Assembly: GCA_043810695.1 (NCBI GenBank)
Contig: JBDRNV010000002.1
Coordinates: 5,015-69,014 of the forward strand
Length of the DNA: 64,000 bases
From: Nanobdellota archaeon
GTDB lineage: Archaea > Nanobdellota > Nanobdellia > Pacearchaeales > GW2011-AR1
Reading direction: 5' to 3'
The notes under the pieces are model-generated. The model was given only the letters and a program-made list of their open reading frames with translations, had not been told where the DNA came from and made no database searches. Shown piece by piece: positions 1,211 through 63,050 of this stretch. Position numbers and translations under genes: made by a program. Numbering within the stretch: position 1 is the stretch's first letter; every line of letters starts with the position of its first letter.

Positions 1211-1735
1211 ATGCTAAATAAATACAGCAGATACAGGGTTTTAAGGGTTTTTTTGCAAAAACCAACAGAAAGTTTTGGATTAAGGGAAATCGGTCGTCTT
1301 AGCAAATTATCTCCACCATCAGTGATTAAGTATCTAAAAGAGTTTGAATTAGATGGGCTAATAATCAAAACAGAAAAAAAAGGAATTCCCTCTTATCAAG
1401 CAGCCAAAGAAAATGAAGATTTTATCTTTTATAAAAAGGTAGATATTTTATATGAACTTCATAGTTCTGGTCTTGTCGACTATTTGTGGCAGAAATTAGG
1501 CCCAAATGCAATAATTTTATATGGAAGCCATGCAAAAGGGGAAGCTGCAGAAAACTCTGACATTGACATATTTATTATAGGAAAAGATAAAGATATTGTT
1601 CTGGCAGAATTTGAGAAAAAATTAGGTAGAGAAATACATTTGATGTTTGATAATAATGTAAAAAACATTCCGAGTGAACTTAAAAATAACCTAATCAACG
1701 GAATTATATTAAAAGGTTATTTTAAGGTGTTTTAA
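1211..1735 (+). CDS. wHTH + minimal nucleotidyltransferase (MNT-type, HEPN/MNT module)
   Basis: 'ILYGSHAKGEAAENSDIDIFIIG' = GS...DxD NTase motif; N-terminal winged-helix-like region; paralog at 2841..3368. Confidence 0.75.
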   Translation: MLNKYSRYRVLRVFLQKPTESFGLREIGRLSKLSPPSVIKYLKEFELDGLIIKTEKKGIPSYQAAKENEDFIFYKKVDILYELHSSGLVDYLWQKLGPNAIILYGSHAKGEAAENSDIDIFIIGKDKDIVLAEFEKKLGREIHLMFDNNVKNIPSELKNNLINGIILKGYFKVF

Positions 1736-2139
1736 TGATAATCAAAGTTTTTCCAGATAAAGAAAAAGCAAAGTCTATTCTAAAAATGGCCAATTCAAGG
1801 GAGCAATTTCTGAAAGACATGGAAAAAATAAAAATTTATTCAACAATAATTACTGAGAATTATTACGAAATAATTAAGGAGCTTTGTATAGCTGTAATCT
1901 TAACTGATGGTTATAAGGCCATTGGAGAAAATGCTCATAAAGAATTAATTGATTTTATGCGAAGATACAAAGAATTCAATGATTTTGAGATAGAAACAAC
2001 CTAGGATCTTAGGATAAGAAGAAATAAAAGCGCCTATGAAGGAAAGCAAATAGAACTAGTTTATCTGGAAAATAACAGGAATACTTTAATTAAGATAATT
2101 TCTAAACTAAAGAAAATTTTAGAGGGAAAACTTGACTAA
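1735..2139 (+). pseudogene. HEPN-domain partner of MNT, interrupted by in-frame TAG at 2002-2004
   Basis: 89-aa ORF stops at TAG; same frame continues 'DLRIRRNKSAYEGKQ...' (HEPN-like R-x-x-RN motif) to TAA at 2137-2139; start overlaps MNT stop (TAATG). Confidence 0.55.
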
Positions 2140-2161
2140 ACAATTATTATCTCTAAAATCC

Positions 2162-2203
2162 TTTTCCACAACACCAGTTTCCCATCTCTGTCCCATAAGA
2201 AAA
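2162..2203. repeat. copy b of nuclease-gene 3' end
   Basis: ttttccacaacaccagtttcccatctctgtcccataagaaaa; 34/41 identical to 3432-3472. Confidence 0.85.
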
Positions 2204-2233
2204 GAAACATTTATAAATAACTTACCATTATTT

Positions 2234-2575
2234 ATGTGTATGAAAATTAGTAAGGAAGACTTGCTTCGCATAAACAAAGGATTTGGAGGAAATCTTAGAA
2301 GCGACTCAAGTCTTGATTTTGCTATTGATAAAATAAACAGCTCAAAATTAGGGTTTTATAATAGATTAGCCTATTTATGGAGAGCAATATTAGTTGACCA
2401 CCCCTTTTCAGATGGTAATAAGAGAACAGCTGTATTTTTAGCATATGCTTTTGCAGAAGAAAGCAAGAAATATGTAGATAGAGATATATTAGTTCATCAA
2501 GCTATTTCAATAGCAAAGAAAAATATCACCAGTATAAGACAAATAGAATGGAGACTTAAAAATGCAATTAAATAA
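2234..2575 (+). CDS. Fic/Doc-family toxin
   Basis: 'HPFSDGNKRTA' = Fic motif HxFx[DE]GNxR; the tracked ORF start at 2132 is a TTG that reads through the repeat, ATG at 2234/2240 is more plausible. Confidence 0.75.
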   Translation: MCMKISKEDLLRINKGFGGNLRSDSSLDFAIDKINSSKLGFYNRLAYLWRAILVDHPFSDGNKRTAVFLAYAFAEESKKYVDRDILVHQAISIAKKNITSIRQIEWRLKNAIK

Positions 2576-2774
2576 AAAAATAATTAATAGGATATTGAAA
2601 AAGAATAAAAAAGCATTTGAAATGCTAGAAAATTACGATAAAACAAGAGAACTTCCATTTCAAAGAAAAAGAATAGATATTACTCTATCAGTGGAAACAC
2701 TAAGAAAACTTAAGGAATTAAAGGAAAAAACAAAAAAATCAATTTCCCAAATTATTGAAGAAAAAATTCAATAG
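2562..2774 (+). CDS. putative ribbon-helix-helix antitoxin-like protein
   Basis: 70 aa; 'RIDITLSVETLRKLKELKEKT' resembles an RHH beta-strand/helix; overlaps Doc stop. Confidence 0.4.
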   Translation: MQLNKKIINRILKKNKKAFEMLENYDKTRELPFQRKRIDITLSVETLRKLKELKEKTKKSISQIIEEKIQ

Positions 2775-2775
2775 C

Positions 2776-2815
2776 TTTTCCAAAAAATCAATTTCCCCTT
2801 CATCCTTCAACAAAA
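2776..2815. repeat. copy c of nuclease-gene 3' end (most diverged)
   Basis: ttttccaaaaaatcaatttccccttcatccttcaacaaaa followed by catttatata. Confidence 0.6.
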
Positions 2816-2840
2816 CATTTATATACCAAAGGGTACTAAA

Positions 2841-3368
2841 ATGTATATTATGGTACAAAGAAGTATACCGAGCTTATTTGCAGTTATTGAAGTCTTCTTT
2901 CAAGAGCCCACAAAAATACATTTTATCAAAGAAATAAGCCGAGAGATAAAACTTGCTCATACTTCTGTGAGAAACATAATAAAATACCTGGAGAAAAATC
3001 ATATAATTGTTAAGAAAAAATCAAAACCATTTGACGGATACACTGCAGATAGAGAGAATGAGGATTTTATCTTCTATAAAAAGGCTTACAATATTTATTC
3101 GTTGAAAGATATAACCCGTGAAATAGTAAATTCTGTTTATCCTTCAGCAATCGTTCTTTTCGGGTCTTATTCTCGCGGAGAAGATGTAGAATCAAGTGAT
3201 ATTGACATATTTGTTCTTTCTAAAGCAAAAAAAGAGATAAATGTCTCCCCATTTGAAAAAAGCCTTAAGAGAAAAATAAATATAATGACTCTCGACAGAA
3301 TTGAAAAACTTGATGAATTAATAAGGAAAAAAATAAATAACGGGACTGTTTTGCATGGTGAAATATGA
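2841..3368 (+). CDS. wHTH + minimal nucleotidyltransferase (second MNT)
   Basis: 'VLFGSYSRGEDVESSDIDIFVLS'; same architecture as 1211..1735. Confidence 0.75.
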   Translation: MYIMVQRSIPSLFAVIEVFFQEPTKIHFIKEISREIKLAHTSVRNIIKYLEKNHIIVKKKSKPFDGYTADRENEDFIFYKKAYNIYSLKDITREIVNSVYPSAIVLFGSYSRGEDVESSDIDIFVLSKAKKEINVSPFEKSLKRKINIMTLDRIEKLDELIRKKINNGTVLHGEI

Positions 3369-3430
3369 TAGAAGACAGAGTATTTAGGATAAACAAAGAT
3401 AAAGAAAGGGCAGAGGATCTTTTTATATAG
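3365..3430 (+). pseudogene. 21-codon remnant of a HEPN partner gene
   Basis: ATGA overlap with MNT stop as in the first pair; 'MIEDRVFRINKDKERAEDLFI*' parallels 'MIIKVFPDKEKAKS..' then ends where the nuclease gene end begins. Confidence 0.4.
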
Positions 3431-4175
3431 ATTTCCACAGCACCAATTTCCCTTTTTCATCCCATAAGAAAATCGTGTCTCCTGTTTCTGTTAAATCTAA
3501 TTCAAAAGAAACTTCTTCTCCGTTGCCCAATGTTTTTTCCTGGAAGATTGTGTTGTTTCTTCCTTCTGCTTTTATTCTCCATCCAGTTATATCACATGAA
3601 AAATCACAGATATTTTCCAATGTCTCAGAATCTTTCAGTATTATGCAAGAAGCACATTTATGCGATGAAGCTTCGCAGAGATTAATATTACTATTAATAC
3701 AGCTATCCCAGGCTTTAGTAAATTCTGAATAATGCTTATCTTTGCCAGAAGGAAAATAATAATTACCAAATCCATTTTCTACCATTTTAATATTAATATT
3801 CTCATTTTCTAAAAAAACATATGCAAGCGTTCTGTAATATTTATCATAGCGCTCTTTTCCAAATTCAAGCAGAACTGTTTTATTGAAAACCAGCTGTTCA
3901 AGAAATTCTTTTGCCTCTAAATAATATAACTCTCCGCGTTCAGGTGTGTTAATTCCTAAAAGCCTTATACTTGTGTCATTAGACTCAATTGTATCTCCAT
4001 CTATAACTCTATTCACAAAAACTTCTTGTCTTGTATCGAGGAAATTATTAAGTGTGTTATCAAGAATAGGATAATTTAATATAAATAGGGCAAGAATAAG
4101 TGCAATTAACAAAATAATATCCCTTTTCCTAATTGACTTTTGAATAACTTTTTTATTTAACATTAATAATTGCAA
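3423..4175 (-). CDS. membrane-anchored staphylococcal-nuclease (SNase) homolog with C-terminal lamin-tail-like domain
   Basis: N-terminal TM; 'VIDGDTIE...IRLLGINTPE' and 'RYDKYYRTLAYVF' SNase motifs; C-terminal 'ITGWRIKAEG...FLWDEKGKLV' LTD-like. Confidence 0.75.
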   Translation of the reverse strand: MQLLMLNKKVIQKSIRKRDIILLIALILALFILNYPILDNTLNNFLDTRQEVFVNRVIDGDTIESNDTSIRLLGINTPERGELYYLEAKEFLEQLVFNKTVLLEFGKERYDKYYRTLAYVFLENENINIKMVENGFGNYYFPSGKDKHYSEFTKAWDSCINSNINLCEASSHKCASCIILKDSETLENICDFSCDITGWRIKAEGRNNTIFQEKTLGNGEEVSFELDLTETGDTIFLWDEKGKLVLWKSI

Positions 4176-4262
4176 TTATTATAATATATAATTATATTTT
4201 GAAGTTGTGAATATATAATTAATCATAATTAAATATATAAATTCATCTTATCCAGGGGTAAT

Positions 4263-9592: not shown

Positions 9593-10399
9593 TTATTTTA
9601 TAGACTTCATTTCTCTCCAGGCAAGTTCAAACAATTGCTCAAGCGCCTGAGCAAAGAATTCTGTGTTTATCCAAACACCAATATCATAGTTTGGATGGAA
9701 TTTTTCATCATCAAGGAGCATGAACATAAGCTGGGTGGAATCAATTACTGTAAATCTTGCCTTGAATTTTTCTATATTTTTTACTTCTGCAACTTTTTTG
9801 AATTCTCTTGCAACTTTTATATTATTATTGTTTATTGGTGCAGCTATCCTTATTTTTACCCCTCTTTTTTTACATTTTTCAAGACTTGGCATTAATACTT
9901 CTAATTTTCTATTAAGCCCTTCAGCTGTTGTCATGATTGTTATTGTTTCTTCAGCGTCTCTTATCATCATATCAAGATGATTGTAAAGATTTTGTCTTCC
10001 TTTAAGACTTCCAGATAAATCAGAAGGCTCTACAAATTTCACTCCTTTTGTAAAGAGTGAGGTTAGTTCCTCAAGAACCTCGTCATTTTTCAGAGCTTCA
10101 AGTCTTTTGGATCTTTCTTTTGCCTCAACCATAAGATTTTTCTTTGCTCTTTCAACAACTTCTGTAGGTTTTAATGCGAAGAATTTTATAGGTTTGCCAA
10201 GCTTCATGACAATAAACCCTTTCTTTTCAAGGCTTTCAAGGATATCATATGTTCTTGAACGTGGAACATCAGAAATACTGCTCAATTCCCCGGCTGTTGA
10301 AGTTCCCCTCGAGAGAAGGGCTGTCCATACCTTAACTTCATATAAATTCAAATCAAAAATTTTTCTTAATCTGCTTAAAAATTCTTCCTTTATTATCAT
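9593..10399 (-). CDS. trmB: TrmB-family transcriptional regulator
   Basis: 'YEVKVWTALLSRGTSTAGELSSISDVPRSRTYDILESLEKKGFI' wHTH typical of TrmB. Confidence 0.75.
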   Translation of the reverse strand: MIIKEEFLSRLRKIFDLNLYEVKVWTALLSRGTSTAGELSSISDVPRSRTYDILESLEKKGFIVMKLGKPIKFFALKPTEVVERAKKNLMVEAKERSKRLEALKNDEVLEELTSLFTKGVKFVEPSDLSGSLKGRQNLYNHLDMMIRDAEETITIMTTAEGLNRKLEVLMPSLEKCKKRGVKIRIAAPINNNNIKVAREFKKVAEVKNIEKFKARFTVIDSTQLMFMLLDDEKFHPNYDIGVWINTEFFAQALEQLFELAWREMKSIK

Positions 10400-10465
10400 T
10401 TTATTATTTTTTATAAGGGTGCATCTTTTTAAAGATTGTTATGATAAAAGAGTAACCTAAAGGGA

Positions 10466-13345
10466 TTACCCGCTGGTAATGATAATTATTATGCCTCTTT
10501 TATCTCTTATATTAAAAGAGATTTTGTTTTTAAATTTTTCCTTTAAATGAATAGTATCGAGGATGTTTTTTATTTCAATCTCCAATTTTTTTGAGTTTGT
10601 TCTCTCTTTTATAAAAGATTTTTGCGTTTCCAATATTTTTTTGAAATCTCCGTCGGTAATTATAATCAGCTCCACACTGTCTTTTTTCTGTAAACCAATT
10701 TTTTTTCTGAAATCCTGTACTTTTCTTGATAACTCGCGCGCATAACCTTCTGCTTCAAGTTCAGGAGTTAGTTTAACGTCTAATGTTATACCCAAAGAAT
10801 CTAATTTAGGAACTTTATCAAAATAAACTTCCTTAACATTTAATTGAGATTTAATTAATTCTTTAATATCATTACTAATATCAAATTTAGCAGAAATATT
10901 TGCTGATTTTAATGGCCATTTTAAACCAATTTTAGCAGTTTCTCTTTCATATAACCCTTTTTCAATTATCCCAAATACATTTTCAAATTCTCCTTCTAAT
11001 TTTTTATTAATCTTCTTTACATCTGCTTTTGGCCAGGAACACAAATGAACACTTTCTTCTCTAACAATTTTCTTTTTTCTCAAATCCTGCCATACTGCTT
11101 CTGTTAAAAAAGGAATAATTGGAGAACAAATTTTAATTAGAACTGCATAAACTTCTTTTAAAACATAAAGACAAGATTTATCTTCATTTGCTATTCTATC
11201 TCTTACAAATTTGATATATCTCCTGCTTAAATCATTCAACCAAAAATCTTGTAATAATCTAGTAGCTGTAAAGTAGCGCATTTCTCCAATTTCTTTTGTT
11301 GCATTTTTTATAAGAGAATTTAATTTTGATAAAATCCATTTGTCTTCTACTTTGGATATTTTAGTTTTACTTTTATTTTCAATAAGCCGGCTTATATTGA
11401 ATAAAATATTTAGATTATTTTGCGGTTCTTTGATAACCTTAAATCCAAATCTTAGTTCAGAAGCAGGATCTTGCAGGCAGTATAATAATCGCATTGGATC
11501 TGCCCCCATTTTTTCAACAGCGTCGTTAAACCATATTACATTTCCTTTGCTTTTATGCATTTCTTCTCCATTTTCATCTTTTACAGATTCATATCCTAAA
11601 ATTGATTTAAATGGAGCCTTGCCTGTTATTGTTACAGAAGCCCACATTAAAGCATTAAACCATCCCCTGTATTGCCCGGGCAGATTTTCAGAAATAAAGT
11701 CAGCAGGAAACCATTTTTTCCAATATTTTTTATCATTTAAATAATTCAAAGTTGAAAATGGAACAATTCCAGCATCAATCCATGCATCTCCTGTATCAGG
11801 TATTCTTTGAACTTCTTTTCCGCATTTTTTGCATTTAATCTTTATTTCATCTATCCATGGACGGTGTATTTCTTGAAGAGCATCTACTTTCTTTTTATCA
11901 ACAGCTGATTCTCTTAATTCTTTTAAATTTCCAGCAACAAAAATTTCTCCGCATGTGCATTCCCAGATTGGCAAAGGCAACCCCCAAAATCTTTTTCTTG
12001 ATATAAGCCAATCATCCATATTTTCAAACCAATCTTCCTGCCTTATTTTTCCATATTCAGGATACCATTTAATTTTCTTATTTTCACTAATTAGCTTATT
12101 TCGAATTTCCTTGCATTTTATATACCACTCATCAACCAACCTAAAAACTAATTCTTCACCGCATCTCCAGCAGTGAGGATATCTATGAGAATAATTTTCT
12201 ATCTTATACACAAATCCTCTTTTTTCCATGTCTTGCATTACTTCTTTATTAACTTCTGAATATTTTTTATTGCTGAAATTTGAATAATCATTTCCATAGA
12301 AACCCATTTCATTTAATGGAGATATTGAAGGTAGTTTCAATTTTTTTCCTAATTGATAGTCTTCTGAACCGCATCCAGGAGCGCAGTGCACGATTCCTGT
12401 TCCTTCTTCTTCAGAAGCAAAATCCCATAATACAACTTTATGAGGAGAATCTTTTTGCTGTTTTAAGTAAGAATAAGGCATTTCATATTTTATTCCTTCA
12501 AGTTCTTTTCCTTTTTTTCTTTCAATAATTTTGTAATTCCCTTTTATTTCTTCAAGTCTTTTTTCAGCAAGCCAGTAATATTCATCCTCCTGCTTTATTT
12601 TTACATAATCAATCTTTTCATTTACAGCTATAACAACATTTGCAGGAACAGTCCATGGAGTAGTTGTGAAAATTAAGAAATATTCTTTTTTCTTTCCAAG
12701 AACAGGAAATCTCATAAATAATGCTTTATGGCTTACCTCCCAATATCCTTCTGTTACTATATCATGCTTTGAACTTGCTGTCCCGCATCTCCAGCACCAC
12801 GGCACAGCATCTTTTCCTTTATACAACCAGCCCTTGTCATAATATTTTTTCAATAAAAACCAGTTATGTAAATTGTTATTTTTAGACATCGTATAATAAC
12901 TATTCTTCCAATCCATCCATTGCCCAAGTTTTAGAGATTGTTCTGTCTGTATAGCTGAGAATTTTTCAACTCTTTTCTTGCATGATTTTACAAAATTAAG
13001 AACCCCAAATCTTTCAATATCTTCTTTATTTTTTAATCCCAAATCTTTTTCTTCTTCTCTTTCAACCCATAATCCCTGACAATCAAAACCATTTTGCCAC
13101 CTTAAATCATAACCATTCATAGCCTTAAATCTAAGAAATAAATCTTTGTAGGTTCTTCCTCTTGCATGATGAACACCCATCGGGTTATTCGCAGTTATAG
13201 GTCCATCAATAAAACTACACCTTTTCTTACCCCTATTTTTCTTAACTAGTTTTTTAAATATTTTGTTTCTTTCCCAAAATTTCCTTATTTCTTCTTCTAT
13301 TTGTTTAAAGTTGTACATTTTACAAAACATAAACAAATCACTCAT
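10466..13345 (-). CDS. ileS: isoleucyl-tRNA synthetase (type 2)
   Basis: 'DGPITANNPMGVHHA' (GPxTAN..G.HH), 'WCWRCGT', 'MHKSKGN' KMSKS variant; real start may be ATG at 13318 (MYNFKQ). Confidence 0.8.
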   Translation of the reverse strand: MSDLFMFCKMYNFKQIEEEIRKFWERNKIFKKLVKKNRGKKRCSFIDGPITANNPMGVHHARGRTYKDLFLRFKAMNGYDLRWQNGFDCQGLWVEREEEKDLGLKNKEDIERFGVLNFVKSCKKRVEKFSAIQTEQSLKLGQWMDWKNSYYTMSKNNNLHNWFLLKKYYDKGWLYKGKDAVPWCWRCGTASSKHDIVTEGYWEVSHKALFMRFPVLGKKKEYFLIFTTTPWTVPANVVIAVNEKIDYVKIKQEDEYYWLAEKRLEEIKGNYKIIERKKGKELEGIKYEMPYSYLKQQKDSPHKVVLWDFASEEEGTGIVHCAPGCGSEDYQLGKKLKLPSISPLNEMGFYGNDYSNFSNKKYSEVNKEVMQDMEKRGFVYKIENYSHRYPHCWRCGEELVFRLVDEWYIKCKEIRNKLISENKKIKWYPEYGKIRQEDWFENMDDWLISRKRFWGLPLPIWECTCGEIFVAGNLKELRESAVDKKKVDALQEIHRPWIDEIKIKCKKCGKEVQRIPDTGDAWIDAGIVPFSTLNYLNDKKYWKKWFPADFISENLPGQYRGWFNALMWASVTITGKAPFKSILGYESVKDENGEEMHKSKGNVIWFNDAVEKMGADPMRLLYCLQDPASELRFGFKVIKEPQNNLNILFNISRLIENKSKTKISKVEDKWILSKLNSLIKNATKEIGEMRYFTATRLLQDFWLNDLSRRYIKFVRDRIANEDKSCLYVLKEVYAVLIKICSPIIPFLTEAVWQDLRKKKIVREESVHLCSWPKADVKKINKKLEGEFENVFGIIEKGLYERETAKIGLKWPLKSANISAKFDISNDIKELIKSQLNVKEVYFDKVPKLDSLGITLDVKLTPELEAEGYARELSRKVQDFRKKIGLQKKDSVELIIITDGDFKKILETQKSFIKERTNSKKLEIEIKNILDTIHLKEKFKNKISFNIRDKRGIIIIITSG

Positions 13346-20449: not shown

Positions 20450-20587
20450 CGCCTCAGGCAGGAATCGAACCTGCGAACCCCGAAGGGTCGGGATCTTTGC
20501 GTTTTCTCCAATAAAGGAGATGTCGTAAGAAGAACCTTGGTTCTTTTTACTTAGCAATCCCGTGCAATACCATTATGCGACTGAGGC
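20450..20587 (-). tRNA. tRNA-Ser (anticodon GCU) with ~57-nt intron
   Basis: Hand fold: GCCTCAG acceptor, CGGGA/TCCCG anticodon stem, loop TTGCTA|A, long variable arm ACCCTTCGGGGTTC, T-arm GCAGGTTCGATTCCTGC; 138 nt minus 81 nt mature. Confidence 0.75.
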
Positions 20588-21576: not shown

Positions 21577-21912
21577 TTACTCTCTTTTGAAAATTTCACA
21601 TAATCTTGTTTCAACTTCTTTTATTTTTTCTTTTTTTAAAGAACCAAACTTATAAGATACTATTGTTTTTCTAAGTGTGAATAATCTAGATGGTCTTATA
21701 AAACTTTTGATTTTTAAATTTCCTAATCTTAAGTCTTTTTGGAATAATAAAATTTTATCTTTATCTGGCCTGTCTTTTGTGGTAATTTGACAAAGAATTA
21801 TATCATCCCCTTCTAAATTAGCAACAACCAAAGCAGGTCTTTTTATGGTAGATGTTAAATCAGAAAAGGGAAAATAAGTAACTACAATATCTCCTTTTAC
21901 AAATCTTTCCAT
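21577..21912 (-). CDS. mazF: PemK/MazF-family toxin
   Basis: 'VKGDIVVTYFPFSDLTSTIKRPALVV' SH3-like N-terminus of MazF/PemK. Confidence 0.7.
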   Translation of the reverse strand: MERFVKGDIVVTYFPFSDLTSTIKRPALVVANLEGDDIILCQITTKDRPDKDKILLFQKDLRLGNLKIKSFIRPSRLFTLRKTIVSYKFGSLKKEKIKEVETRLCEIFKRE

Positions 21913-22130
21913 GCTTCATTGTCCTCCTTACTTAGCCAATCAATTGCTAGTAATCTTTGGTCGGCTAATATAGGGGATTTTTCATATTTATTATCATCTT
22001 TGTCAAGATGTTCCATTTGTTTTATTCTTTTTTCAATAACTTTTCTGACAAAATCACTCCATTTTATTTCAGAATATCTTTTCATTTTCTTATATATATC
22101 ATCATTAATTGATAAGGTTATATTTGTCAT
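21897..22130 (-). CDS. cognate antitoxin (putative)
   Basis: Overlaps toxin start by 16 nt; tracked start 22136 is TTG, ATG at 22130. Confidence 0.5.
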   Translation of the reverse strand: MTNITLSINDDIYKKMKRYSEIKWSDFVRKVIEKRIKQMEHLDKDDNKYEKSPILADQRLLAIDWLSKEDNEAWKDL

Positions 22131-22134
22131 AACC

Positions 22135-22156
22135 AAATAAGTGGTACCACTTATTT
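22135..22156. promoter_or_regulatory. perfect 22-nt palindrome overlapping the TATA-like box of the mazEF-like operon
   Basis: aaataagtggt|accacttattt directly upstream of the antitoxin ATG. Confidence 0.5.
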
Positions 22157-22248
22157 AAACTTTTCTGAAGGCTATGTCAATTCAGTTACTTCTATAAAAT
22201 TGCAACAAAATAGAAATATTTAAATACCTTTTATTTCTTTAAAAATGC

Positions 22249-23049
22249 ATGGAAACCGAGAATCTGGGATATGTTAAAGGATTGGGAGAAATTCATAGAA
22301 TTAATGCTCCATTTGTAGTGCAATTGGGAGCTTTTAGAGAAATAGGAATAAAGGCACCTGTAAGCGTAAGAGATACTTCTTTAATAAGGCTCAGCGGAAA
22401 ATCCACAGAAGGAACAAGGACATGTCACGCTCCTGTTTACCTTAAGAATTCTCCTACAATAGTTGCGAGAATGTCTCCTTTGGTAAGAAATTTAGGAATG
22501 GCACAAAAAGCAGTGAATGCTCACAAAAGCAGTGAATATCCTGTTTTTGGTAGCTCGATTTATGCCCAGTGGGAAAAGATTGCAAAACAGGACAAGGGAA
22601 AGAAGCCTGAGAAAAGAAGGGCAATCATACTTCCTGAAAGAAAAGATTTTGACATACATAGGGATTCAGACGAAGCAGAATTTTTCTGGCAGGACAAAAG
22701 AAAAGAATATTTTAAAAGATTTGTTTCAGCAGATAAAGTCATAGCGTATCAAATCGACCCAGAAACGGTTGATTCTCAAGATGGAGCAATTGTGAATTAT
22801 CTCTGGTTCGACGATCCCGAGGATGGTTCTTACTTGTACCTTAGGAGCAGGAGCTTGTACTATGACGACAGGGCTTTCGGGGTGTTGGAGAAAACCAGCG
22901 AAGCTGGTTTGCAAAAAATTTCAGGAAATTTGGTCAGGCATTATACTCAAAGAGAAGCAAAAAAATATACTAATATTCTTCAGGATGTTATGTCTGGAAA
23001 AACAGGAACTTCAAAATTAGAAAAAGTGCTTAAGCATTTTAAAAAATAA
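22249..23049 (+). CDS. DGR-type variable (target) protein candidate
   Basis: Contains the variable repeat 22801-22872 near its C-terminus; locally higher G+C by eye than neighbours. Confidence 0.6.
   Translation: METENLGYVKGLGEIHRINAPFVVQLGAFREIGIKAPVSVRDTSLIRLSGKSTEGTRTCHAPVYLKNSPTIVARMSPLVRNLGMAQKAVNAHKSSEYPVFGSSIYAQWEKIAKQDKGKKPEKRRAIILPERKDFDIHRDSDEAEFFWQDKRKEYFKRFVSADKVIAYQIDPETVDSQDGAIVNYLWFDDPEDGSYLYLRSRSLYYDDRAFGVLEKTSEAGLQKISGNLVRHYTQREAKKYTNILQDVMSGKTGTSKLEKVLKHFKK
22801..22872 (+). other. variable repeat (VR) of a diversity-generating-retroelement-like pair
   Basis: 72-nt ungapped match to 23310-23381; 10 of 11 mismatches lie at adenines of the other copy. Confidence 0.75.
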
Positions 23050-23309
23050 AAACAGAAAGCAATTTAAACATAAGTTTCTTTTTTTATCTGCCTTGACTCT
23101 TATTTGAAGCATATGTACAAAAACATATGCTGGTGAGAATAATAGAAAGGCCACACGCCAGTTTATTAAGGCATTATTCAAGTTTATTTTAAGTCATAAA
23201 ATTCAGAAGCGACTTGCGAGAAGCTTCGGTGCGCAAATTAAATTTTGCTGTGTGCAGGCAAGATTCCTGACGTGAAAATTATTCATGAGATAAATTGGCT
23301 ACAAAAAGT

Positions 23310-23381
23310 CTCTGGTTCAACAATCCCGAGAATGGTTCTAACTTGAACCTTAGGGACAGGAACTTGAACAATGACAACAGG
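23310..23381 (+). other. template repeat (TR), non-coding
   Basis: AAY-rich (reads LWFNNPENGSNLNLRDRNLNNDNR); the tracked ORF 23295..23480 is probably not a gene. Confidence 0.75.
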
Positions 23382-23577
23382 AACAGCTATGCTTTTGGAA
23401 TGGCCTTAAGTCAGGGCATTTTATATTTAGCATTAAAATTATTAATCATTCTTACATTAATCTTTAAAAATCCCGAATAGTTCTTTTTATAATCATGCAA
23501 TTAAAAAGGGAAGTTGAATGTGGTAAATTAAAGGAGGTTGACTGTTAAGGAACCTTGGTGCCTTACAGTGTCTTACA

Positions 23578-26442
23578 ATGGCTTACATAAAAAAACTGGT
23601 GATACATGGCTTTAAGAGTTTTCCAAGAAAAACAGAGATTCCTTTTACAAAAGGAATAAATATAATTTTAGGCCCGAATGGCTCTGGAAAATCAAACGTA
23701 TCTGATGCTTTATGCTTTGTTCTGGGAAGACTAAGCATTAAATCAATGCGTGCTGCAAAAGCAGGCAATTTAATTTTTATGGGAACAAAAGAAGCCTCTC
23801 CTGCAAAAGAAGCCTCTGTTGAAATAATTTTTGATAATTCAGATAAAACATTTTCTTTGGATAAAAATGAAATAATTATTAAGAGAATTGTAAGAAGAAA
23901 CGGGCAAAGCATTTACAAAATTGATAATGAAACAAAAACAAGACAGGAAGTTCTTTCTTTGCTTGCTCAGGCTGGAATAGATCCACAAGGATTTAATATT
24001 ATTCTTCAGGGAGAGATACAGAGTTTTGTGAGAATGCAGCCAGAAGATAGAAGAACAGTAATTGAAGAAGTTGCAGGAATATCTGTTTATGAATCAAGAA
24101 AAGAAAAGTCACTTCACGAGCTTGAAAAGACAGAAGACAGACTTAAAGAAATCAGCTCTATTCTCAGAGAGAGAACTTCTTATTTGAATAATCTTGAAAA
24201 AGAAAGACAGCAGGCACTAAGATTCAAGAAACTTGAGGCAGATATAAAAAAGTTTAGAGCAAGTATAATCTATTTCAACCTTCATAAAAAAAGAAAAGAA
24301 AATGAGAAAATAAACTCTGATATAGAACAAAGAAATAATGAAATAGAAAAAATAAAGAAAGTAATCATTGGAATTGAAACAGAAACAAAAAATTTTTCTT
24401 TTAAAATAGATAACATAAATTCTGAAATACAAAAATCTACAGGACTTGAACAGGAAAAACTTAATCAAGAAATAGCCAATTTAAGGGCAGAACTTGCAGG
24501 GCTTAATGTAAAACTTGAAAACCAAGAATCAAGACTTTCTAATTTATTAAAACAAAAAGAAGAATTCCAAAAATCGCTGAAAGAATCAGAGCTTTCAATA
24601 AAAGAGCTTCAGAAAGAGTCTCCTACACCAGAAAGAAATGCAAAAGAAATAGAGGAAAAAAAGAAAGAACTTGAGAAGCTTGAAGAAAAAAGAAAAAAAT
24701 TCTACATGATTAAATCAGAAATAAACTCTGTCAAAGAAAGAATTGAAGATAAAAATTCTCTTCTTCAGAATTATACAAACGAATCTAATTTTTTAATAAA
24801 GCAAATTGAATCCCTTTCAATACAAATTTTTGATAAAAAAGCAAATTCTGAAAAACTAGGCAGGTTTAAAATCTCTTTATCAGAAAAAAAAGAATTCCTT
24901 AATAGTTTAGTAAAAAAAGAAATAGAACTTGAAAAAAATAGTTCTATTAATTTATCAGAAATAGAAAATCAAAAAAGAATTATAGAAAAAATATCAAAAT
25001 TAGATATATGTCCTGTATGTAAAAGCAAAATAACTCCAAAACATATGGAAGAAATAAAAAAAGAAATCATCCCCCACATAGAATCTTTAAAAAAGACAAT
25101 AGAATCCTCTGATTCTGAATTAAAAACAATATATCAGAAAAAAGAAATAATAATAAAAGATATCGATGAACTAGCTCAGCAGATATCAAAAACAGATACA
25201 GATCTAAATAAACTTTCAAATATAAATGATAAAAAAAATCAGATTAAAATTTTATATGAAAAATTAGAAAATCTAAAAAAAGAGCTAGCAGAATTAACTA
25301 AGAAAAAAACTAATCTTGAAAGAATTTTTGAAACAGACTCTAATATAGAGCAAAAATATGAGACTTTGAAAATAGAAGTTCAGGAAATATCTCTAAGAAC
25401 CAAAAAAACACTAAAATCAGAAGTTGAATTTAAACAGAGAGAAATTGAAAGAATAAAAATTTCTTTGAAACAAATATCTCGGGAAGAGACTGATGCAAAT
25501 GAAGAATTATTCTCTCTTAAGAAAATATTTGAAGAAAAGAATAAAATTTTAACCAAAAAAAGACAGCAGGAAGAAGAATTAAATAAAAAATTCGAAGAAA
25601 TGCTTTCTGAAAAAGAGAGATTGCAGAAAAAAATAAGAGAAAAAGAAACAGATACTCTTTCAAAAAAACATGCAATTCATATTATAGAACTTGAAATAAA
25701 TGAATTCAAAATTGAAAAAGCAAGAGTTGATGCAGAGATAGAGAATTTTGAAACAGAGATGCTTGAATTTTCAAATGTTGAAATAATAAAGACAAATAAG
25801 GATGTTCTGGTTGAAAGGCTTGCTAAATCACAGGAAATTATTTCAAGAGTAGGAACTGTCAATCTCCGCTCCCTTGAAGTTTATGATTCAATAAAAAAAG
25901 AGTATGATGTTGTAAAAGAAAAAGCAGGAATAATAGAAAAAGAAAAAGATAATATATTAAAAGTAATACATGAAATAGATGTAAAAAAGAAAAAATCATT
26001 TATTCAGACACTTAAAAAAATAAACGAGCTTTTTTCAAGAAATCTATCTCAATTGATTCCAAAAGCAGAGGTTTTCCTTGAGCTTGAAAACAACCAAAAC
26101 CCGTTTGAACCAGGTTCTGGAGTTCAGATAATTGTAAAGACAGGACACGGGAAATACTTTGATGTTAAATCTCTTTCAGGAGGAGAACAGACTCTTGTTG
26201 CTCTCTCGCTTATATTTGCGATTCAGGAATATCGTCCTTACTACTTTTATCTTCTAGACGAAATTGATGCAGCTCTTGACAAAAGAAATTCAGAAAGGCT
26301 TGCCGGGCTTCTTAACAAATACATGCTTAATGGGCAGTATATAGTTATCACACACAATGATGAAATTATTTCAAAGGCAACAAATCTTTATGGAATAAGT
26401 ATGCATGATGGAATTTCTAAAATTATTAGTCTTAAAGTGTAG
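23578..26442 (+). CDS. smc: SMC-family ATPase with central CxxC in place of a hinge domain
   Basis: SMC head motifs 'GPNGSGKSN', 'ILQGEIQSF', 'EEVAGISVYESRK', 'LSGGEQTLVALSLIFAIQ', 'LLDEIDAALD'; CPVC at aa 478-481 of 954 (25009-25020). Confidence 0.8.
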   Translation: MAYIKKLVIHGFKSFPRKTEIPFTKGINIILGPNGSGKSNVSDALCFVLGRLSIKSMRAAKAGNLIFMGTKEASPAKEASVEIIFDNSDKTFSLDKNEIIIKRIVRRNGQSIYKIDNETKTRQEVLSLLAQAGIDPQGFNIILQGEIQSFVRMQPEDRRTVIEEVAGISVYESRKEKSLHELEKTEDRLKEISSILRERTSYLNNLEKERQQALRFKKLEADIKKFRASIIYFNLHKKRKENEKINSDIEQRNNEIEKIKKVIIGIETETKNFSFKIDNINSEIQKSTGLEQEKLNQEIANLRAELAGLNVKLENQESRLSNLLKQKEEFQKSLKESELSIKELQKESPTPERNAKEIEEKKKELEKLEEKRKKFYMIKSEINSVKERIEDKNSLLQNYTNESNFLIKQIESLSIQIFDKKANSEKLGRFKISLSEKKEFLNSLVKKEIELEKNSSINLSEIENQKRIIEKISKLDICPVCKSKITPKHMEEIKKEIIPHIESLKKTIESSDSELKTIYQKKEIIIKDIDELAQQISKTDTDLNKLSNINDKKNQIKILYEKLENLKKELAELTKKKTNLERIFETDSNIEQKYETLKIEVQEISLRTKKTLKSEVEFKQREIERIKISLKQISREETDANEELFSLKKIFEEKNKILTKKRQQEEELNKKFEEMLSEKERLQKKIREKETDTLSKKHAIHIIELEINEFKIEKARVDAEIENFETEMLEFSNVEIIKTNKDVLVERLAKSQEIISRVGTVNLRSLEVYDSIKKEYDVVKEKAGIIEKEKDNILKVIHEIDVKKKKSFIQTLKKINELFSRNLSQLIPKAEVFLELENNQNPFEPGSGVQIIVKTGHGKYFDVKSLSGGEQTLVALSLIFAIQEYRPYYFYLLDEIDAALDKRNSERLAGLLNKYMLNGQYIVITHNDEIISKATNLYGISMHDGISKIISLKV
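26401..26442. repeat. smc 3' end (genuine), left copy
   Basis: 42 nt, 41/42 identical to 26471-26512. Confidence 0.9.
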
Positions 26443-26548: not shown

Positions 26549-26782
26549 ATGGATACAACAATACAAATAAGCAAAGAACTTTTAGGAAAATTACAAAAAA
26601 TGAAGATGCATAATAAAGAAAGTTACGAGGATATAATTTGGGATTTAATAGAAGATAGAATGGAACTCTCTGAAGAAACAAAAAGGGATATTGCAGAATA
26701 TGAAATAGATTTAAAGAAAGGAAAATCTAGAAAATTCCATAAATGGGAAGATGTTAAAAAGGAGCTAAATCTAAATGTATGA
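26549..26782 (+). CDS. antitoxin of RelE/ParE module (putative)
   Basis: 77 aa, overlaps toxin start by 8 nt. Confidence 0.55.
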   Translation: MDTTIQISKELLGKLQKMKMHNKESYEDIIWDLIEDRMELSEETKRDIAEYEIDLKKGKSRKFHKWEDVKKELNLNV

Positions 26783-27026
26783 AATAATTCTTTCAGAAAA
26801 AGCTAAAAAACAATTAAAAAAATTAAATAAATTAACTCAGGAAAGAATAGGTTCTGTTATTGAAAGAATAAAAATTCGTCCGTTTTCTTACGATATAAAA
26901 AAACTTCAAGGAACATCTTATTACAGAGCAAGAGTGGGTGAATATAGAATTATTTTAGATATTCAACAAAATAAGTTAATTATTATTGTAATAGAAATAG
27001 GACATAGAAAAAATATTTATGATTAA
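26775..27026 (+). CDS. relE: RelE/ParE-family toxin
   Basis: 'YYRARVGEYRIILDI...IIVIEIGHRKNIY' typical RelE C-terminal half. Confidence 0.75.
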   Translation: MYEIILSEKAKKQLKKLNKLTQERIGSVIERIKIRPFSYDIKKLQGTSYYRARVGEYRIILDIQQNKLIIIVIEIGHRKNIYD

Positions 27027-28070: not shown

Positions 28071-28322
28071 ATGGACGATGCCATAATATCTTTAAGAGTA
28101 GACAAAGAACTTAGAAAGAAAATGAGAGCGCAGGAGGAAGTTAACTGGAGTGCTATCTTAAGAAGAGCTATAATGGAAAATATTGAAAATAAAGAAAAAG
28201 TTGATTTGGAAAAAAGAAAAAAAGCCATAGAGGCAATGGATAAACTTAGAAAATCCAGGGCATTTGACCATGGCAAAAATAGCACATTAAGAATAAGAGA
28301 ATGGAGAAACAAGAGAAGGTAA
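28071..28322 (+). CDS. vapB: VapB-like antitoxin
   Basis: 'ISLRVDKELRKKM' RHH-like N-terminus; overlaps PIN gene. Confidence 0.6.
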   Translation: MDDAIISLRVDKELRKKMRAQEEVNWSAILRRAIMENIENKEKVDLEKRKKAIEAMDKLRKSRAFDHGKNSTLRIREWRNKRR

Positions 28323-28708
28323 TAGATGCTTCAGTAATAGTTAAATGGTTTCTTGATGAAGAAAATTCTGATACTGCAAGAATATTAAGGTCGGAATTAG
28401 CAAAAGAAAATTTAATATTGATTGTTCCTGATTTATTATTCTTAGAAGTCTTAAATACTTTAAGATATAAAATGGTGAAAAAAGATGATCTAATAAAGGC
28501 TAATGAGATACTGGCTGGACTGAGTTTAAAGACAGTAAGAGTAAATAAAGAAATTATGTCAAAGACAATAGAAAACTCTGTGAAATACAAAATAACTATT
28601 TACGATGCCTTGTACATCACATTGGCACAAATTCATGGGACATTTTTGGTAACTGCAGATAAAGAACTGTATAAAGTTCCTAATGTGATTGCCTTGGAGA
28701 AGGTTTAG
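28301..28708 (+). CDS. vapC: PIN-domain VapC toxin
   Basis: 'VIDASVIVKWFLDEE' N-terminal acidic PIN motif; later 'YDALYITLA'. Confidence 0.75.
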   Translation: MEKQEKVIDASVIVKWFLDEENSDTARILRSELAKENLILIVPDLLFLEVLNTLRYKMVKKDDLIKANEILAGLSLKTVRVNKEIMSKTIENSVKYKITIYDALYITLAQIHGTFLVTADKELYKVPNVIALEKV

Positions 28709-36963: not shown

Positions 36964-38127
36964 TTACAGACTAATCAGTTTTATTTTAGTGTCTGTTGTT
37001 GCAAAATTCTTAGCAATAATTAACTGGCATTTTGCGTCTGCTGCAGCATTCAATATCGGCATTGTTGCAGTGCCATCAACAGATAGCGCATAAATTTCCT
37101 TTAGTTTTTTTAAAGAGGAAACCAGGCTTTTTCCAGAAACTTTTTTTATTTCATTCATCTCTTTATCAAGAATTATAGCTTTTTCTTTTCCAGAATTTTC
37201 TTTGAATATTTGTTTTAGTTTTTCCTCTTCATTTTCATTAGTGCTTGAAGCAGTTTCTTCATTATTTCTTTTATTATAATTAGTTTGATAAGGAGCCCTG
37301 GAGAGATATCTCCTTTTGGATAAAAATTCCCCAACAGAAATTTTTTTCCTTAAATTCATTAATATCTCTTTTCCTGTAAGCTCTTCAACTTCCTTTCCAT
37401 CTGGAGCAACAACAATGTATTTTATTCTTGCGTTATCTAATACATTTTTTATTATAAGTTCTCCTCCTCTATCTCCATCAACAAAAAGAATTATATCTTT
37501 TTCTTCGCTTAATTTTCTAATACTGTCAGGAAGTTTTGTGCCATTCATTGCAACAACATTTTTTACGCCAGCTCTTATAAGATTTAATACATCTGCACGG
37601 CCTTCAACAACAATTATCTCTTGTTCAGACAATTCTCCACAAGGCAGTTTTTCCTCTCCATATTCTTTTACTTCTGCTACTCTCGCAGAGTCTTTGATTT
37701 CTTTTGAAATTTCTCTTGAGTCTGTCTTGCCGCTTATCTCAGACATTAGTTTTTTGGCTCTTTCAATTATGTAATCTCTTTTGCTGCCTCTAACATCTTC
37801 AATTCTTTCTACTTCAACCTGTGCGTCACAAGGACCTATCTTTTCAATTGTCTCAACAGCAGCTGCAATAAGAGTTGTTTCTGATTGGTCAAGAGCTGTT
37901 GGAACTTTTATTGTTCCTGTAGTTGTCTTGTCTTTTCTTTCAATTTCAACCTCTATTCTTCCAATCTTTCCCTCTTTCTGCAGTTCTCTCATCTCAAGAT
38001 CAGCGCCAAGCAAACCTTCTGTCTGGCCGAAAATAGCTCCTATTATATCTGGCTTTTCCAAGGCACCTTCTACTCTAAAATTTGCATGTATCATATATTT
38101 TATAGATACAGGACTTATTTTTGCCAT
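36964..38127 (-). CDS. dnaG: archaeal DnaG primase (TOPRIM)
   Basis: 'YMIHANFRVEGALEKPDIIGAIFGQTEGLLG' N-terminus, 'IVVEGRADV' and 'LFVDGDRGG' TOPRIM motifs. Confidence 0.85.
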   Translation of the reverse strand: MAKISPVSIKYMIHANFRVEGALEKPDIIGAIFGQTEGLLGADLEMRELQKEGKIGRIEVEIERKDKTTTGTIKVPTALDQSETTLIAAAVETIEKIGPCDAQVEVERIEDVRGSKRDYIIERAKKLMSEISGKTDSREISKEIKDSARVAEVKEYGEEKLPCGELSEQEIIVVEGRADVLNLIRAGVKNVVAMNGTKLPDSIRKLSEEKDIILFVDGDRGGELIIKNVLDNARIKYIVVAPDGKEVEELTGKEILMNLRKKISVGEFLSKRRYLSRAPYQTNYNKRNNEETASSTNENEEEKLKQIFKENSGKEKAIILDKEMNEIKKVSGKSLVSSLKKLKEIYALSVDGTATMPILNAAADAKCQLIIAKNFATTDTKIKLISL

Positions 38128-43800: not shown

Positions 43801-46800
43801 TTAAAGATACTTTTTCATAACCTGGTTTAATAAATTAATCCTCTGTTTTATTAATCCGGCTTTTTTGTCATCCCAATTAAACCTTAAATTTTTTATTAGT
43901 TGTTCTATTCTAATCAATTCACTTCTTAATTCTAACACAATTTTATTTTCACCTAATTTTTTCTTAACTTCTTTATAATTTTTCAAAATTTCATTATAAG
44001 GCTTTTCCACTTCTACATATTTCGCTCTCTCTACATTTGCCTCATTAATTGATTTTTCTATTACTTCTTCTTTAATCAACTTTGGTCTAGTCATGCTAAT
44101 ATTAGGATATTTAGCTATTATTGGCTGTAATGCAGAATCAATATTGTTTAAAACAGCTTCTAATTTTACAAAATCACCACTAATTAAAATATCACAAGCT
44201 TTTTTATAATTATATTCTAAATCTTCGTAATTAAGAATAGACCCTCTTAAATCTATATTGTATTGTCTTAAAACATCTAATTGATATCTTATATCTTCAA
44301 CTTTATTACTGTAATAATTATACCTCTTTAATTCCTCATCACTTAATCTCTTTGTTGCATGCAGTATTGGCCTGACAACCATAAAATAAGGCCTGCCTTT
44401 ATTATATTCTGCATTGACAAACATCCCTGTACCAACAGGAGCCCTTACCAATGCGCCAGAGATTTTTTCACCAAAATTATCCTTAATTCTATTTAAGTCA
44501 TTTTCATAACGAGTACGCATTTGAATTTCTGTAGAAATATTAGCTTTTATTTCACCAATAAAGTCGCTTGAAACCTGCGATATTAAAACCATTCCAATTC
44601 CCCATTTTCTGAACTCTCTTATACCTCTTTCAATTTGTACAAATCCTTTTCCTTTACCTCCAAATTTCTCAAGCAATCTATGGACTTCATCATAAACTAA
44701 AAGTACTTTTAATTTATCGCTTTCTGTAGGTTGTAATGCGAAAATTTCACGAACAGTATTAGCAATAAATAAATCCATAGCATCTGGTTCAAGTTTGTTT
44801 AGACAATAAATTGTTATACTGCCTTCTTTTCCTTCTTTATTTTTTTCTCTTAATAAATCTCTAACATTTATTTTTTCTCTTGGATCTTCAATCATCTCAA
44901 TTTTTCCTGAAAACGATCTTGCAGCATTGTTAGTTAATCCAAATTCTGCATATTGATTAAGCATTTTTGGTTCTTGGCACTTTTTTAAAAACCCTGTCCA
45001 TTGTGCAGAAGGATCAAATACAATAACATGAGTGCCCCTCATTAAAGCTCCTTCACAAATTGCTTGTGCGCAGATAGTTTTTCCGCTGCCTGTTGAACCA
45101 GATACAATAGTGTGTAATTTCAAAGATTCTAAATTAACATAGGCTTTTTTATCTGATTCTGCAATTTTTCCAATTATGGCGCTTCTTAAACCAGGTTTTG
45201 GTAATAGATTATAATCAATGTCAACTTTATATTTTAAAGCTTCTTTTCTTTTTTTCTCCATTAGTTTTCTGTAATAGATTATTCCGCTTGTTGTTAAACC
45301 TGCAAGTATTAAGAATAAAGCATAATAAGTTAATTTTATTCCTAAAAACTTTCGAGTTTTTAAGAAATCTAGAGCAACCTGAAAAATATTTTTTTTAATC
45401 TCAAATGTATCAATAGCATCGGTTAATTTATCTCCATCATAAATAACTACTGCTTCTATGAGATATTTTCCTTTAGTTAGAAGAGATAATGGTTGTATTG
45501 TTTTTTGAGTTGAACTTGTTGAATAAAACTCTGCAAAATCAGAATCTTGTGCTACTACCTCTCCTTTATAATTTCTAACTGTATAATCAATTAAAGCCTC
45601 TATTTTTGTCATTTTTCCTAAATTAATCAGTTGTGTTGTTAATAATATGCCTCCATCCTGTGTTATTGTAAGAAATTGAACATTAGCATTTAAGAGCTGG
45701 TCCTCTTCTGTTAATTCTTCTATATTCAGAGTAACTGGAAATTTAACTTTTTTATTTAAATTAATAGCTTCATTAACAGCATCAATAACCATGTTGCCCA
45801 CATATGTTTTAATTTCAACATTGCTAGGAATTTTAACAAATATTTTTACTATTTCTGTTCCAAATCCTGCCAGATTAATTTCTTTTTTTTCAAAATCAAT
45901 AAATTCAGCAACACCACCATCATCACTAATTTTAAATTTAATGTTTTCAGTAATTTTGTTTATAAATTTAAGAGTGTATTCTCTGTTTTCTCCTGGATGA
46001 AGTGTTGCTGTCATCAACGTGGTTTCTATTCTAAACTCATCTGTTTCATAAATGCCTTTTTCTGTTAAACCTTCACCTGTTTCATTATCAAGACCAAAGC
46101 ATCCAGGACATACTTCTGTTAATGCAAATGCTCCAATTTTTTCATCTTTGTCGAAATCTACAGAAGCTGTATAAATTGTTTCATTTAATATCATTCCACT
46201 TTCTTGATCATAACCAATCCAATCACTATCAACACAAATTTTATTTTCAAAATCCCAGCTAGGACAATGAAGAATCATTAAATTGTTAATATCAACCTTC
46301 AAATTTTCGACTAAATTTCTATAATTAAAACTAATTGTCTTAGGATAAAGTTGATTATTATTAGAAATAACAGCTAAGGTTTTTACTTTTATTGGTTCTA
46401 TGTCCACTGGAAGCTCTTGTGAAATAGCAGGGCTTTCTCCAAATGCTGTAATAAAACCAGTTATATCCTGATCAAAAAGAACATCATGATAAGCAACACT
46501 ATCACCTGATAATTCTGGATTTTCTGTATTTTTAATAATTACATTATATTCTCCAGAATCAATATCTTTTGAATAATCTCCATTTGGCGGTGTGCTTGCA
46601 AATGAAAAAGATTTTCCTTGTATTAATGAATTAATATCAAAACTTGCAATCTTGCCTTTTTCTAAATAATCAACGTCTTTTATACTACCACTAAATTTAA
46701 TTTTATCAGCAAATGTAAATTCAAATGTTCTTTCAGCAGAATTACTATTTTCATCTACAGCTGAGAAAACTAATTTATGTTTTTTATCTTTATCAACAAG

Positions 46801-62796: not shown

Positions 62797-63047
62797 TTGA
62801 TATTTTTAAGGATATCATAAATTTTTACTAAAGTATTATAATTTTTTAAATTACCACCAGCATTAATTGGATTTGGTATTTGTGCGCTTATATAATGAAA
62901 TTTTCCTTTTGTATCTTGTCCTTGCATATTTACAGATATATCTCCACTAGGAAGCACTTCAATTTCTAAAAAACATCGTGCTTTTCCATCTTCACCTATT
63001 AAACTTCCTTCCAAAGACATTAAATTTAATCTTCTTTGCTTGTTCAT
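62793..63047 (-). CDS. unknown 84-aa protein between rpoB and rpoA
   Basis: ATGA overlap with rpoA start; 3 nt after rpoB stop. Confidence 0.4.
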   Translation of the reverse strand: MNKQRRLNLMSLEGSLIGEDGKARCFLEIEVLPSGDISVNMQGQDTKGKFHYISAQIPNPINAGGNLKNYNTLVKIYDILKNIK

Positions 63048-63050
63048 TTT

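Follow-up and report, generated by a model that had tools for sequence, protein, structure and literature searches.

Background

Canonical Smc, the ATPase of Smc-ScpAB, carries a hinge domain (PF06470) at the apex of its long arms, and Rad50/SbcC carries a CxxC zinc hook (PF04423) at the apex of an antiparallel coiled coil, with two Rad50 chains supplying the four cysteine ligands of the zinc in the Pyrococcus furiosus structure 1L8D. Here we describe an smc gene within 64,000 nucleotides of DNA from a Nanobdellota archaeon of the order Pacearchaeales (GenBank assembly GCA_043810695.1, contig JBDRNV010000002.1, positions 5,015 to 69,014 of the forward strand, hereafter the window), the 954-residue product of which combines the head of an SMC with a predicted zinc hook and no recognisable hinge. 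We consider it likely that this protein serves a Pacearchaeota-type DPANN archaeon as its housekeeping Smc, encoded in single copy, and that in this lineage a hinge of ~190 residues was replaced by a Rad50-like zinc hook.

The closest described architecture is an engineered one. Bacillus subtilis grows normally on rich medium with the Smc(Zh) construct, in which the P. furiosus Rad50 zinc hook takes the place of the hinge, and the construct remains dependent for its function on the geometry of its arms (Bürmann et al. 2017, PMC5344682). Two further reports describe hook and hinge as interchangeable in Rad50 (PMC6969161; PMC7752040). Amongst natural proteins the archaea-specific SMC-related proteins (ASRP; ClsN/coalescin and Sph1/2) possess a zinc hook (PMC9389158), and the 'hinge-less' SMC variants of marine actinobacteria are without a hinge and explicitly without a CxxC (PMC12153180). 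No description of a natural SMC with a zinc hook was found in the full-text literature searched, the coverage of which leaves out most subscription journals, and an earlier mention is possible. The SMC survey in PMC5344682 collected its sequences through hinge alignments and would therefore miss hook-bearing SMCs.

The window protein shares with Smc(Zh) an identical architecture of SMC head, SMC arms and Rad50-type hook, but Smc(Zh) is a laboratory construct whereas the present protein represents a natural, ancient and lineage-wide replacement under purifying selection. In common with canonical Smc (TIGR02169/TIGR02168) it has a full SMC head, arms of similar length, the chromosomal position of hinge-type smc in related DPANN archaea and an ScpA in a close relative, and it differs in bearing a 13-residue CPxC loop in place of the PF06470 hinge, in an scpA that is not adjacent and in that ScpB was not found in the loci searched. 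The CxxC at an antiparallel coiled-coil apex and the extended motif CP[VIL]C...T.EH..E are shared with the Rad50/SbcC hook (1L8D, 6ZFF), but the head is not of Rad50 type and no Mre11/SbcD gene lies nearby. ASRPs are likewise archaeal with an SMC-superfamily head and a coiled coil with a zinc-hook motif, yet they form a separate head family and are shorter (the model NF045487 has 593 positions), whereas the window protein nests in canonical SMC. The actinobacterial variants resemble it in their SMC-type head and coiled coil but are bacterial and stand nearer to four hookless Pacearchaeota SMCs, described below, than to the window protein.

Results and discussion

The ATPase head

Cysteines occur in the protein solely at positions 46, 478 and 481, the last two forming a CPVC motif (478-481) at its arithmetic centre. 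The head motifs are GPNGSGKS at 32, ILQGEIQSF at 142, EEVAGISVYESRK at 163, LSGGEQTLVALSLIFAIQ at 866 and LLDEIDAALD at 892, and between residues 168 and 758 there are just four glycines (265, 289, 308 and 428). A preliminary description of this DNA had given the reading frame, its length, the number of cysteines, the position of the CPVC, the head motifs and a glycine-poor middle without a hinge, and all of these were recovered at the expected places, with Pfam SMC_hinge (PF06470) finding no match in the protein even at E<=1. An assembly artefact or a truncated gene can be ruled out, as both the length and the motif recur in over 120 independent clusters at 90% identity, drawn from NCBI, JGI, ENA and Logan.

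Against the NCBIfam models the protein scored 494 bits with SMC_prok_A, 489 with SMC_prok_B, 102 with ASRP and at most 94 with the Rad50 models (cut-offs of 729 for TIGR02169, 567 for TIGR02168, 300 for ASRP and 700-1087 for Rad50). Both SMC models align in two stretches, the best joining residues 3-471 to model positions 1-478, so that the hinge part of the model contributes nothing. In a sequence search of the PDB the best match was the Smc head of Pyrococcus yayanosii (5xei, 344 bits, E 1e-101), to which residues 1-309 correspond, while the C-terminal head matched the C-terminal halves of Smc heads and Rad50 heads did not exceed 53 bits. The PADLOC defence models mad3 and LmuB gave 155 and 75 bits respectively. 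Across a divergent alignment of 19 family members the invariant head residues are G32, N34-N40, R58, Q144, L866-E870, D894, E895, D897 and H926. As the SMC scores far exceed those of the Rad50, ASRP and defence models and the motifs are invariant across the family, the head is, judged by its sequence, a complete and bona fide SMC ATPase. The view of the preliminary description that it is of SMC and not of Rad50 type is borne out by these scores and PDB matches, and on the same scores we ruled out a Rad50 orthologue. A head tree, built without Rad50 sequences, nests the protein among DPANN SMCs.

The apex in place of the hinge

None of the 19 divergent hook-family members matched Pfam SMC_hinge, a model to which the sister hinge-type SMCs, their nearest hinge-bearing relatives, align at 107-115 bits. 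When the window protein is aligned to the nearest of these (P0151), ISKLDICPVCKSKITPKHMEEI stands opposite a hinge block of about 190-200 residues (roughly 500-690 of P0151), the hinge of the relative beginning at residue 503 and the apex of the window protein lying at residue 478. A full-length model, for which AlphaFold2 was given an alignment of 41 sequences, has no globular domain and consists of helices at 170-344, 351-415 and 424-473, a 13-residue loop at 474-486 and further helices at 487-586, 590-605, 609-729, 741-758 and 765-826. Its predicted local distance difference test score (pLDDT) lies mostly at 80-90 in the arms and the heads are modelled poorly, below 50 in parts. The predicted long antiparallel coiled coil has ~300 residues per strand (helices spanning 170-473 and 487-826), in line with the ~300-340 of prokaryotic SMCs, and arm length is near-canonical when the apex at 478 is set against the hinge start at 503. 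A separate model of residues 430-530 is a helix-loop-helix with a pLDDT of 94, so that at the centre of the protein, where the preliminary description had expected no hinge fold, none is predicted.

In order to compare this fragment with known structures we used Foldseek against 350,542 PDB chains and the top match was the P. furiosus Rad50 zinc hook 1L8D, with a template modelling (TM) score of 0.82/0.81 and a root mean square deviation of 3.2 Å, and 6ZFF_B gave a TM score of 0.79. The same search with the full-length model returned generic SMC complexes only and was uninformative on the apex. Pfam Rad50_zn_hook matches 6 of the 19 divergent members (best E 5e-6). The profile of the hook region pairs iCPvCkskiTkeHleei with the Rad50 hook sequence KCPVCGRELTDEHREEL, and the likeness reaches beyond the two cysteines, CPvCkskiTkeHleei standing against CPVCGRELTDEHREEL of P. 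furiosus Rad50.

Table 1 Parts of the smc gene in the window and the evidence on which each is delimited
Feature	Coordinates	Strand	Evidence
smc gene, 954 amino acids: SMC head, long antiparallel coiled coil and zinc-hook apex, without hinge	23578..26442	+	Open reading frame (ORF) call; Pfam SMC_N residues 3-947; NCBIfam SMC_prok_A 494 bits
ATPase head, N-terminal half, residues 1-170	23578..24087	+	Walker A GPNGSGKS 32-39 (DNA 23671-23694), R58, Q-loop Q144
Ascending coiled-coil strand, residues 171-473	24088..24996	+	AlphaFold2; predicted breaks 345-350, 416-423
Apex loop, proposed zinc hook, residues 474-486, KLDICPVCKSKIT	24997..25035	+	CPVC 25009-25020; AlphaFold2 models, Pfam, profile, Foldseek
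Descending coiled-coil strand, residues 487-826	25036..26055	+	AlphaFold2; breaks near 587-589, 606-608, 730-740, 759-764
ATPase head, C-terminal half, residues 827-954	26056..26439	+	LSGGE 866-870 (DNA 26173-26187), Walker B/D-loop YLLDEIDAALD 891-901, H-loop H926

Conservation of the CPxC motif

Identity to the window protein runs from 64 to 100% among its 120 best homologues, proteins of 935-963 amino acids that are named 'chromosome segregation protein SMC' and come from metagenome-assembled genomes of Pacearchaeota/Nanoarchaeota. In all 120 a CP[VIL]C occupies the corresponding place at the centre. An exhaustive homologue search over 1.84 billion 50%-identity representatives yielded 34 of hook type, each with a CPxC (x being L, V, T, M, K, F or I), and these 34 include all full-length proteins with an end-to-end alignment, the lowest at ~36% identity. 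A CxxC absent from orthologues had been named in the preliminary description as evidence to the contrary, and the motif is instead kept in both sets without exception. In the 19-sequence alignment (36-64% identity) the sole invariant residues in the ~550 amino acids of arm are G289, C478, P479, C481 and A715. Within the close family no substitution occurs at T486 or H489, and in the divergent set position 489 is also occupied by Tyr, Glu, Ala and others.

Three further homologues beside the 120 best bear inteins. In five hook SMCs of 1465-1487 amino acids (P0012, P0024, P0031, P0122 and P0128) an intein of ~520-530 residues with a LAGLIDADG domain sits in the Walker A P-loop directly after GPNGSGK, ending in HN and followed by S.

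Relatives with and without a hook

Next in rank to the hook SMCs are four proteins of 779-804 amino acids that have neither hook nor hinge (P0141, P0143, P0144 and P0146), at least one of them from Pacearchaeota, and these are followed by hinge-type SMCs of 943-1194 amino acids, some of which are named Woesearchaeota. Compared with the window protein the hookless forms have a deletion of ~150 residues centred on the hook. We built a neighbour-joining tree on the head alone (393 columns, 85 sequences, 100 bootstraps), in which hook and hookless SMCs form one clan in 100 of 100 bootstraps, nested among hinge-type DPANN SMCs. The hookless proteins formed a group of their own in none of the 100 bootstraps and are scattered among the hook SMCs, a pattern suggesting that the hook was lost secondarily more than once. 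In a profile scan of genome contigs with the family alignment the matches listed included, as SMCs, hinge-type proteins only, at no more than 42% identity.

The chromosomal setting is common to the three apex types. The window is core archaeal chromosome, with genes for RNA polymerase subunits, EF-2, EF-1alpha, S7, S12, IleRS, ArgRS and RNase HII, and the arrangement RNase HII, smc, PCMT recurs at hook SMC loci both on contigs of 324-609 kb and on three others. At a hookless locus (L005, smc at 10001-12415) RNase HII lies just upstream of smc and PCMT a few kb upstream, and RNase HII is upstream at the nearest hinge-type smc locus also. Defence partner genes were absent from the smc neighbourhoods examined, namely those of the window and of the relatives' loci. 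The hook, hookless and hinge smc genes are thus positional orthologues, and their common neighbourhood speaks for a replacement inside a single gene and against a paralogue. The preliminary description had called the protein an SMC/Rad50 chimera, which holds for the architecture alone, an SMC head with a Rad50-like hook, and not in the sense of an actual recombination with rad50.

Four related SMCs without a hook raise the possibility that the apex link is dispensable. It is conceivable, and we put this forward tentatively, that the apex module of an essential SMC is interchangeable and even dispensable in this order, one swap from hinge to hook having been followed by loss of the hook in several sublineages through a symmetric apex deletion of ~150 residues. 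If so, the hook-free SMCs would be held only by arms, heads and kleisin, SMC function would need neither hinge-specific DNA binding nor hinge opening, and the hook could endow these SMCs with abilities akin to those of Rad50, for instance joining complexes in trans or forming pairs with Rad50 itself.

ScpA and other partners

Among the scanned window ORFs of at least 135 amino acids there was no ScpA, ScpB, Mre11, Rad50 or second SMC, and local hidden Markov models (HMMs) of ScpA and of ScpB found no match in the window, in agreement with the earlier remark that no ScpA/ScpB or Mre11 gene adjoins smc. Likewise scpA, scpB, mre11, rad50 and a second smc were all missing within 10 kb of the hook smc in the relatives' loci (L001-L004 and L213-L215). 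Neither rad50 nor mre11 was seen in 1.7 Mb of lineage loci, which amount to a small part of each genome and are not evidence of genome-wide absence.

Archaeal scpA seeds were taken from smc-scpA loci of the genome-contig scan, and with a seed from outside DPANN an ScpA homology search recovered no more than 21 proteins, among which DPANN was not represented. We wrote the N-terminal DPWDIDI motif of ScpA as an AT-rich DNA pattern and scanned it against metagenomes, which gave 76 ScpA ORFs on AT-rich contigs. A profile of these 76 recovered 4,580 ScpA proteins, the best 120 of which all carry PF02616, and the few of these 120 that have source names are called Pacearchaeota or Nanoarchaeota. One JGI contig of 40,630 bp (Ga0452210_004644) holds both a hook smc at 1344-4199 (P0014, 70% identical to the window protein and carrying CPIC) and an scpA at about 37208-38092 (P0434). 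The latter, of 294 amino acids, scores 49.8 bits with PF02616 (cut-off 24.6) over profile positions 1-230 of 232, as expected of a full-length kleisin, and lies 33 kb from the hook smc and not adjacent to it. That ScpA shares a contig with a hook SMC of 70% identity argues that the hook SMC is not kleisin-less. Of scpAB, for which the preliminary description had proposed a survey elsewhere in the genome, ScpA was found on this relative's contig and ScpB in neither the window, the hook loci nor the Pacearchaeota-type scpA loci.

Three unannotated ORFs near smc were considered as hidden kleisins, one of 266 amino acids in the window, one of 285 at locus L008 and one of 209 at locus L007, and found no support. 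DPANN ScpA proteins fall into two groups of ~235-260 and ~270-390 amino acids (loci L091-L210 and L211), both with S24e, S27, Rpo7/Spt4, diphthamide synthase and HisRS as conserved neighbours. In the DPANN scpA loci scpB is not adjacent, whereas many other archaea have contiguous smc-scpA-scpB.

A proposed zinc-dimerised Smc-ScpA complex

The hook SMC most likely acts in a housekeeping Smc-ScpA complex dimerised through zinc. In such a complex a single tetrahedral Zn2+ would be bound by two cysteines from each of two protomers, producing a constitutive apex dimer as in Rad50, and ATP would engage both heads. ScpA would then join the two heads, binding one at the neck and the other at the cap, to form a closed Smc-kleisin ring, which would load on the chromosome and translocate along or compact it in the manner of canonical Smc-ScpAB. 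The growth phenotype of Smc(Zh) and the interchangeability of hook and hinge reported for Rad50 strengthen this reading, under which natural SMCs, like the engineered Smc(Zh), could do without the hinge fold itself.

A number of observations weigh against a housekeeping Smc with a zinc hook. The protein stands below the equivalog cut-offs of both NCBIfam SMC models (494 bits against 729 for TIGR02169, 489 against 567 for TIGR02168), which is expected since the hinge is missing. In the window protein itself Pfam Rad50_zn_hook (PF04423) covers residues 461-506 weakly, at E 9e-4 and 19.4 bits against a cut-off of 24.3. The hook-region sequence profile has the P. furiosus Rad50 hooks 1L8D and 6ZFF as its top two PDB matches, and these are weak also (E 0.011 and E 0.039), while a helical hairpin is a generic fold and the region is short. 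The Pfam, profile and Foldseek matches to the hook are thus each weak alone, but they are mutually consistent. The four hookless relatives indicate that the apex link may be non-essential in the clade, and a second, hinge-bearing smc may exist elsewhere in these genomes. The evidence for ScpA comes from a relative's contig and not from the window's own genome, and the local ScpB HMM, which finds ScpB beside scpA in other archaea, found none in any of the three sets of loci named above.

Of the other explanations the one that survives best, which we nevertheless regard as unlikely, is that the CPxC is a local structural or redox element, either an intramolecular metal site with His489 or a disulfide, and that dimerisation occurs through arm-arm, head-head and kleisin contacts. 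Hookless and hingeless orthologues in the same clan and at the same locus do show that an apex link can be lost, and T486 and H489 do not vary in the close family; against this the chain has two cysteines only at the apex and cannot by itself complete a Cys4 site, His489 gives way to other residues in the divergent set, and the same CPVC....T.EH pattern is present in P. furiosus Rad50, the hook of which is the best structural match.

Less probable still is a functional Rad50 substitute or a dual SMC/Rad50 protein that is not a condensin, in which the hook would tether DNA ends, bridge complexes in trans or pair with a Rad50 hook. The SMC-type head, with the Rad50 models at 94 bits or below, speaks against such a role, as do the positional orthology with hinge-type smc, the absence of an adjoining nuclease gene from any locus examined and the retention of ScpA on the same contig as a hook SMC in a relative, and these outweigh the Rad50-like apex (by profile, Pfam and Foldseek) and the absence of rad50 and mre11 from lineage loci that span a small part of each genome. 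Membership of another hook-bearing or defence SMC-like family (ASRP/ClsN/Sph, Lamassu LmuB, Wadjet JetC or MADS mad3) was rejected as highly improbable, for although ASRPs are archaeal and hook-bearing (PMC9389158) and mad3 and LmuB reach 155 and 75 bits, the ASRP score of 102 bits falls far below its cut-off of 300 and below the 494 bits of SMC_prok_A, the protein has 954 residues against 593 model positions, and smc lies amid conserved core genes (RNase HII, PCMT, translation genes) without defence partners.

Other features of the window

The segment between RNase HII and smc (21577-23480) is variable among relatives. In the window it begins with a small overlapping gene pair on the minus strand (21577-21912 and 21897-22136) and continues with the ORF of 266 amino acids mentioned above (22249-23049), which has no Pfam, PADLOC or phage match and lies in a 2-kb region of G+C 0.34, the maximum of the window, equalled by 62001-64000. 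A short ORF at 23295-23480 weakly repeats the LWFDDPEDGS motif of this 266-residue ORF. An RT-16 RNA (Rfam RF03019) lies on the plus strand at 23091-23307, within the 528-nucleotide gap upstream of smc, and matches the full model with 76 bits, well above the gathering score of 50. At this position relatives have ~40-130 nucleotides only or a different small gene, so that the RT-16 RNA belongs to an insertion.

Downstream of smc on the plus strand are two overlapping gene pairs, one of 77 and 83 amino acids at 26549-27026 and one at 28071-28708 comprising a protein of 83 amino acids and a PIN-domain protein of 135. Both look like toxin-antitoxin modules and neither is found at the same position in relatives. 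Rfam reports a tRNA of 138 nucleotides on the minus strand at 20450-20587 (45.9 bits) that was not reported by ARAGORN and is probably an intron-containing archaeal tRNA. A minus-strand ORF of 1749 amino acids at 43801-49050 is recognisable in its C-terminal part as a HerA/DUF87-type ATPase (~1290-1545), its first ~1290 residues matching nothing.

Significance

Within the literature searched, an SMC on a zinc hook has until now been described only as a laboratory construct, and all the evidence that we found otherwise that the hinge can be replaced comes from engineered chimeras, namely B. subtilis Smc(Zh) and a yeast Rad50 with the MukB hinge. The proteins described here would be the natural counterpart, a whole lineage of free-evolving organisms running its housekeeping SMC on a predicted zinc hook and keeping ScpA, from which it would follow that nature can do without the hinge fold. 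With their hook, hookless and hinge orthologues the sister lineages provide a set of natural proteins with which to probe the role of the hinge. Hook SMCs, which are deposited simply as 'chromosome segregation protein SMC', also blur the architectural line between SMC and Rad50 that is used in annotation and surveys.

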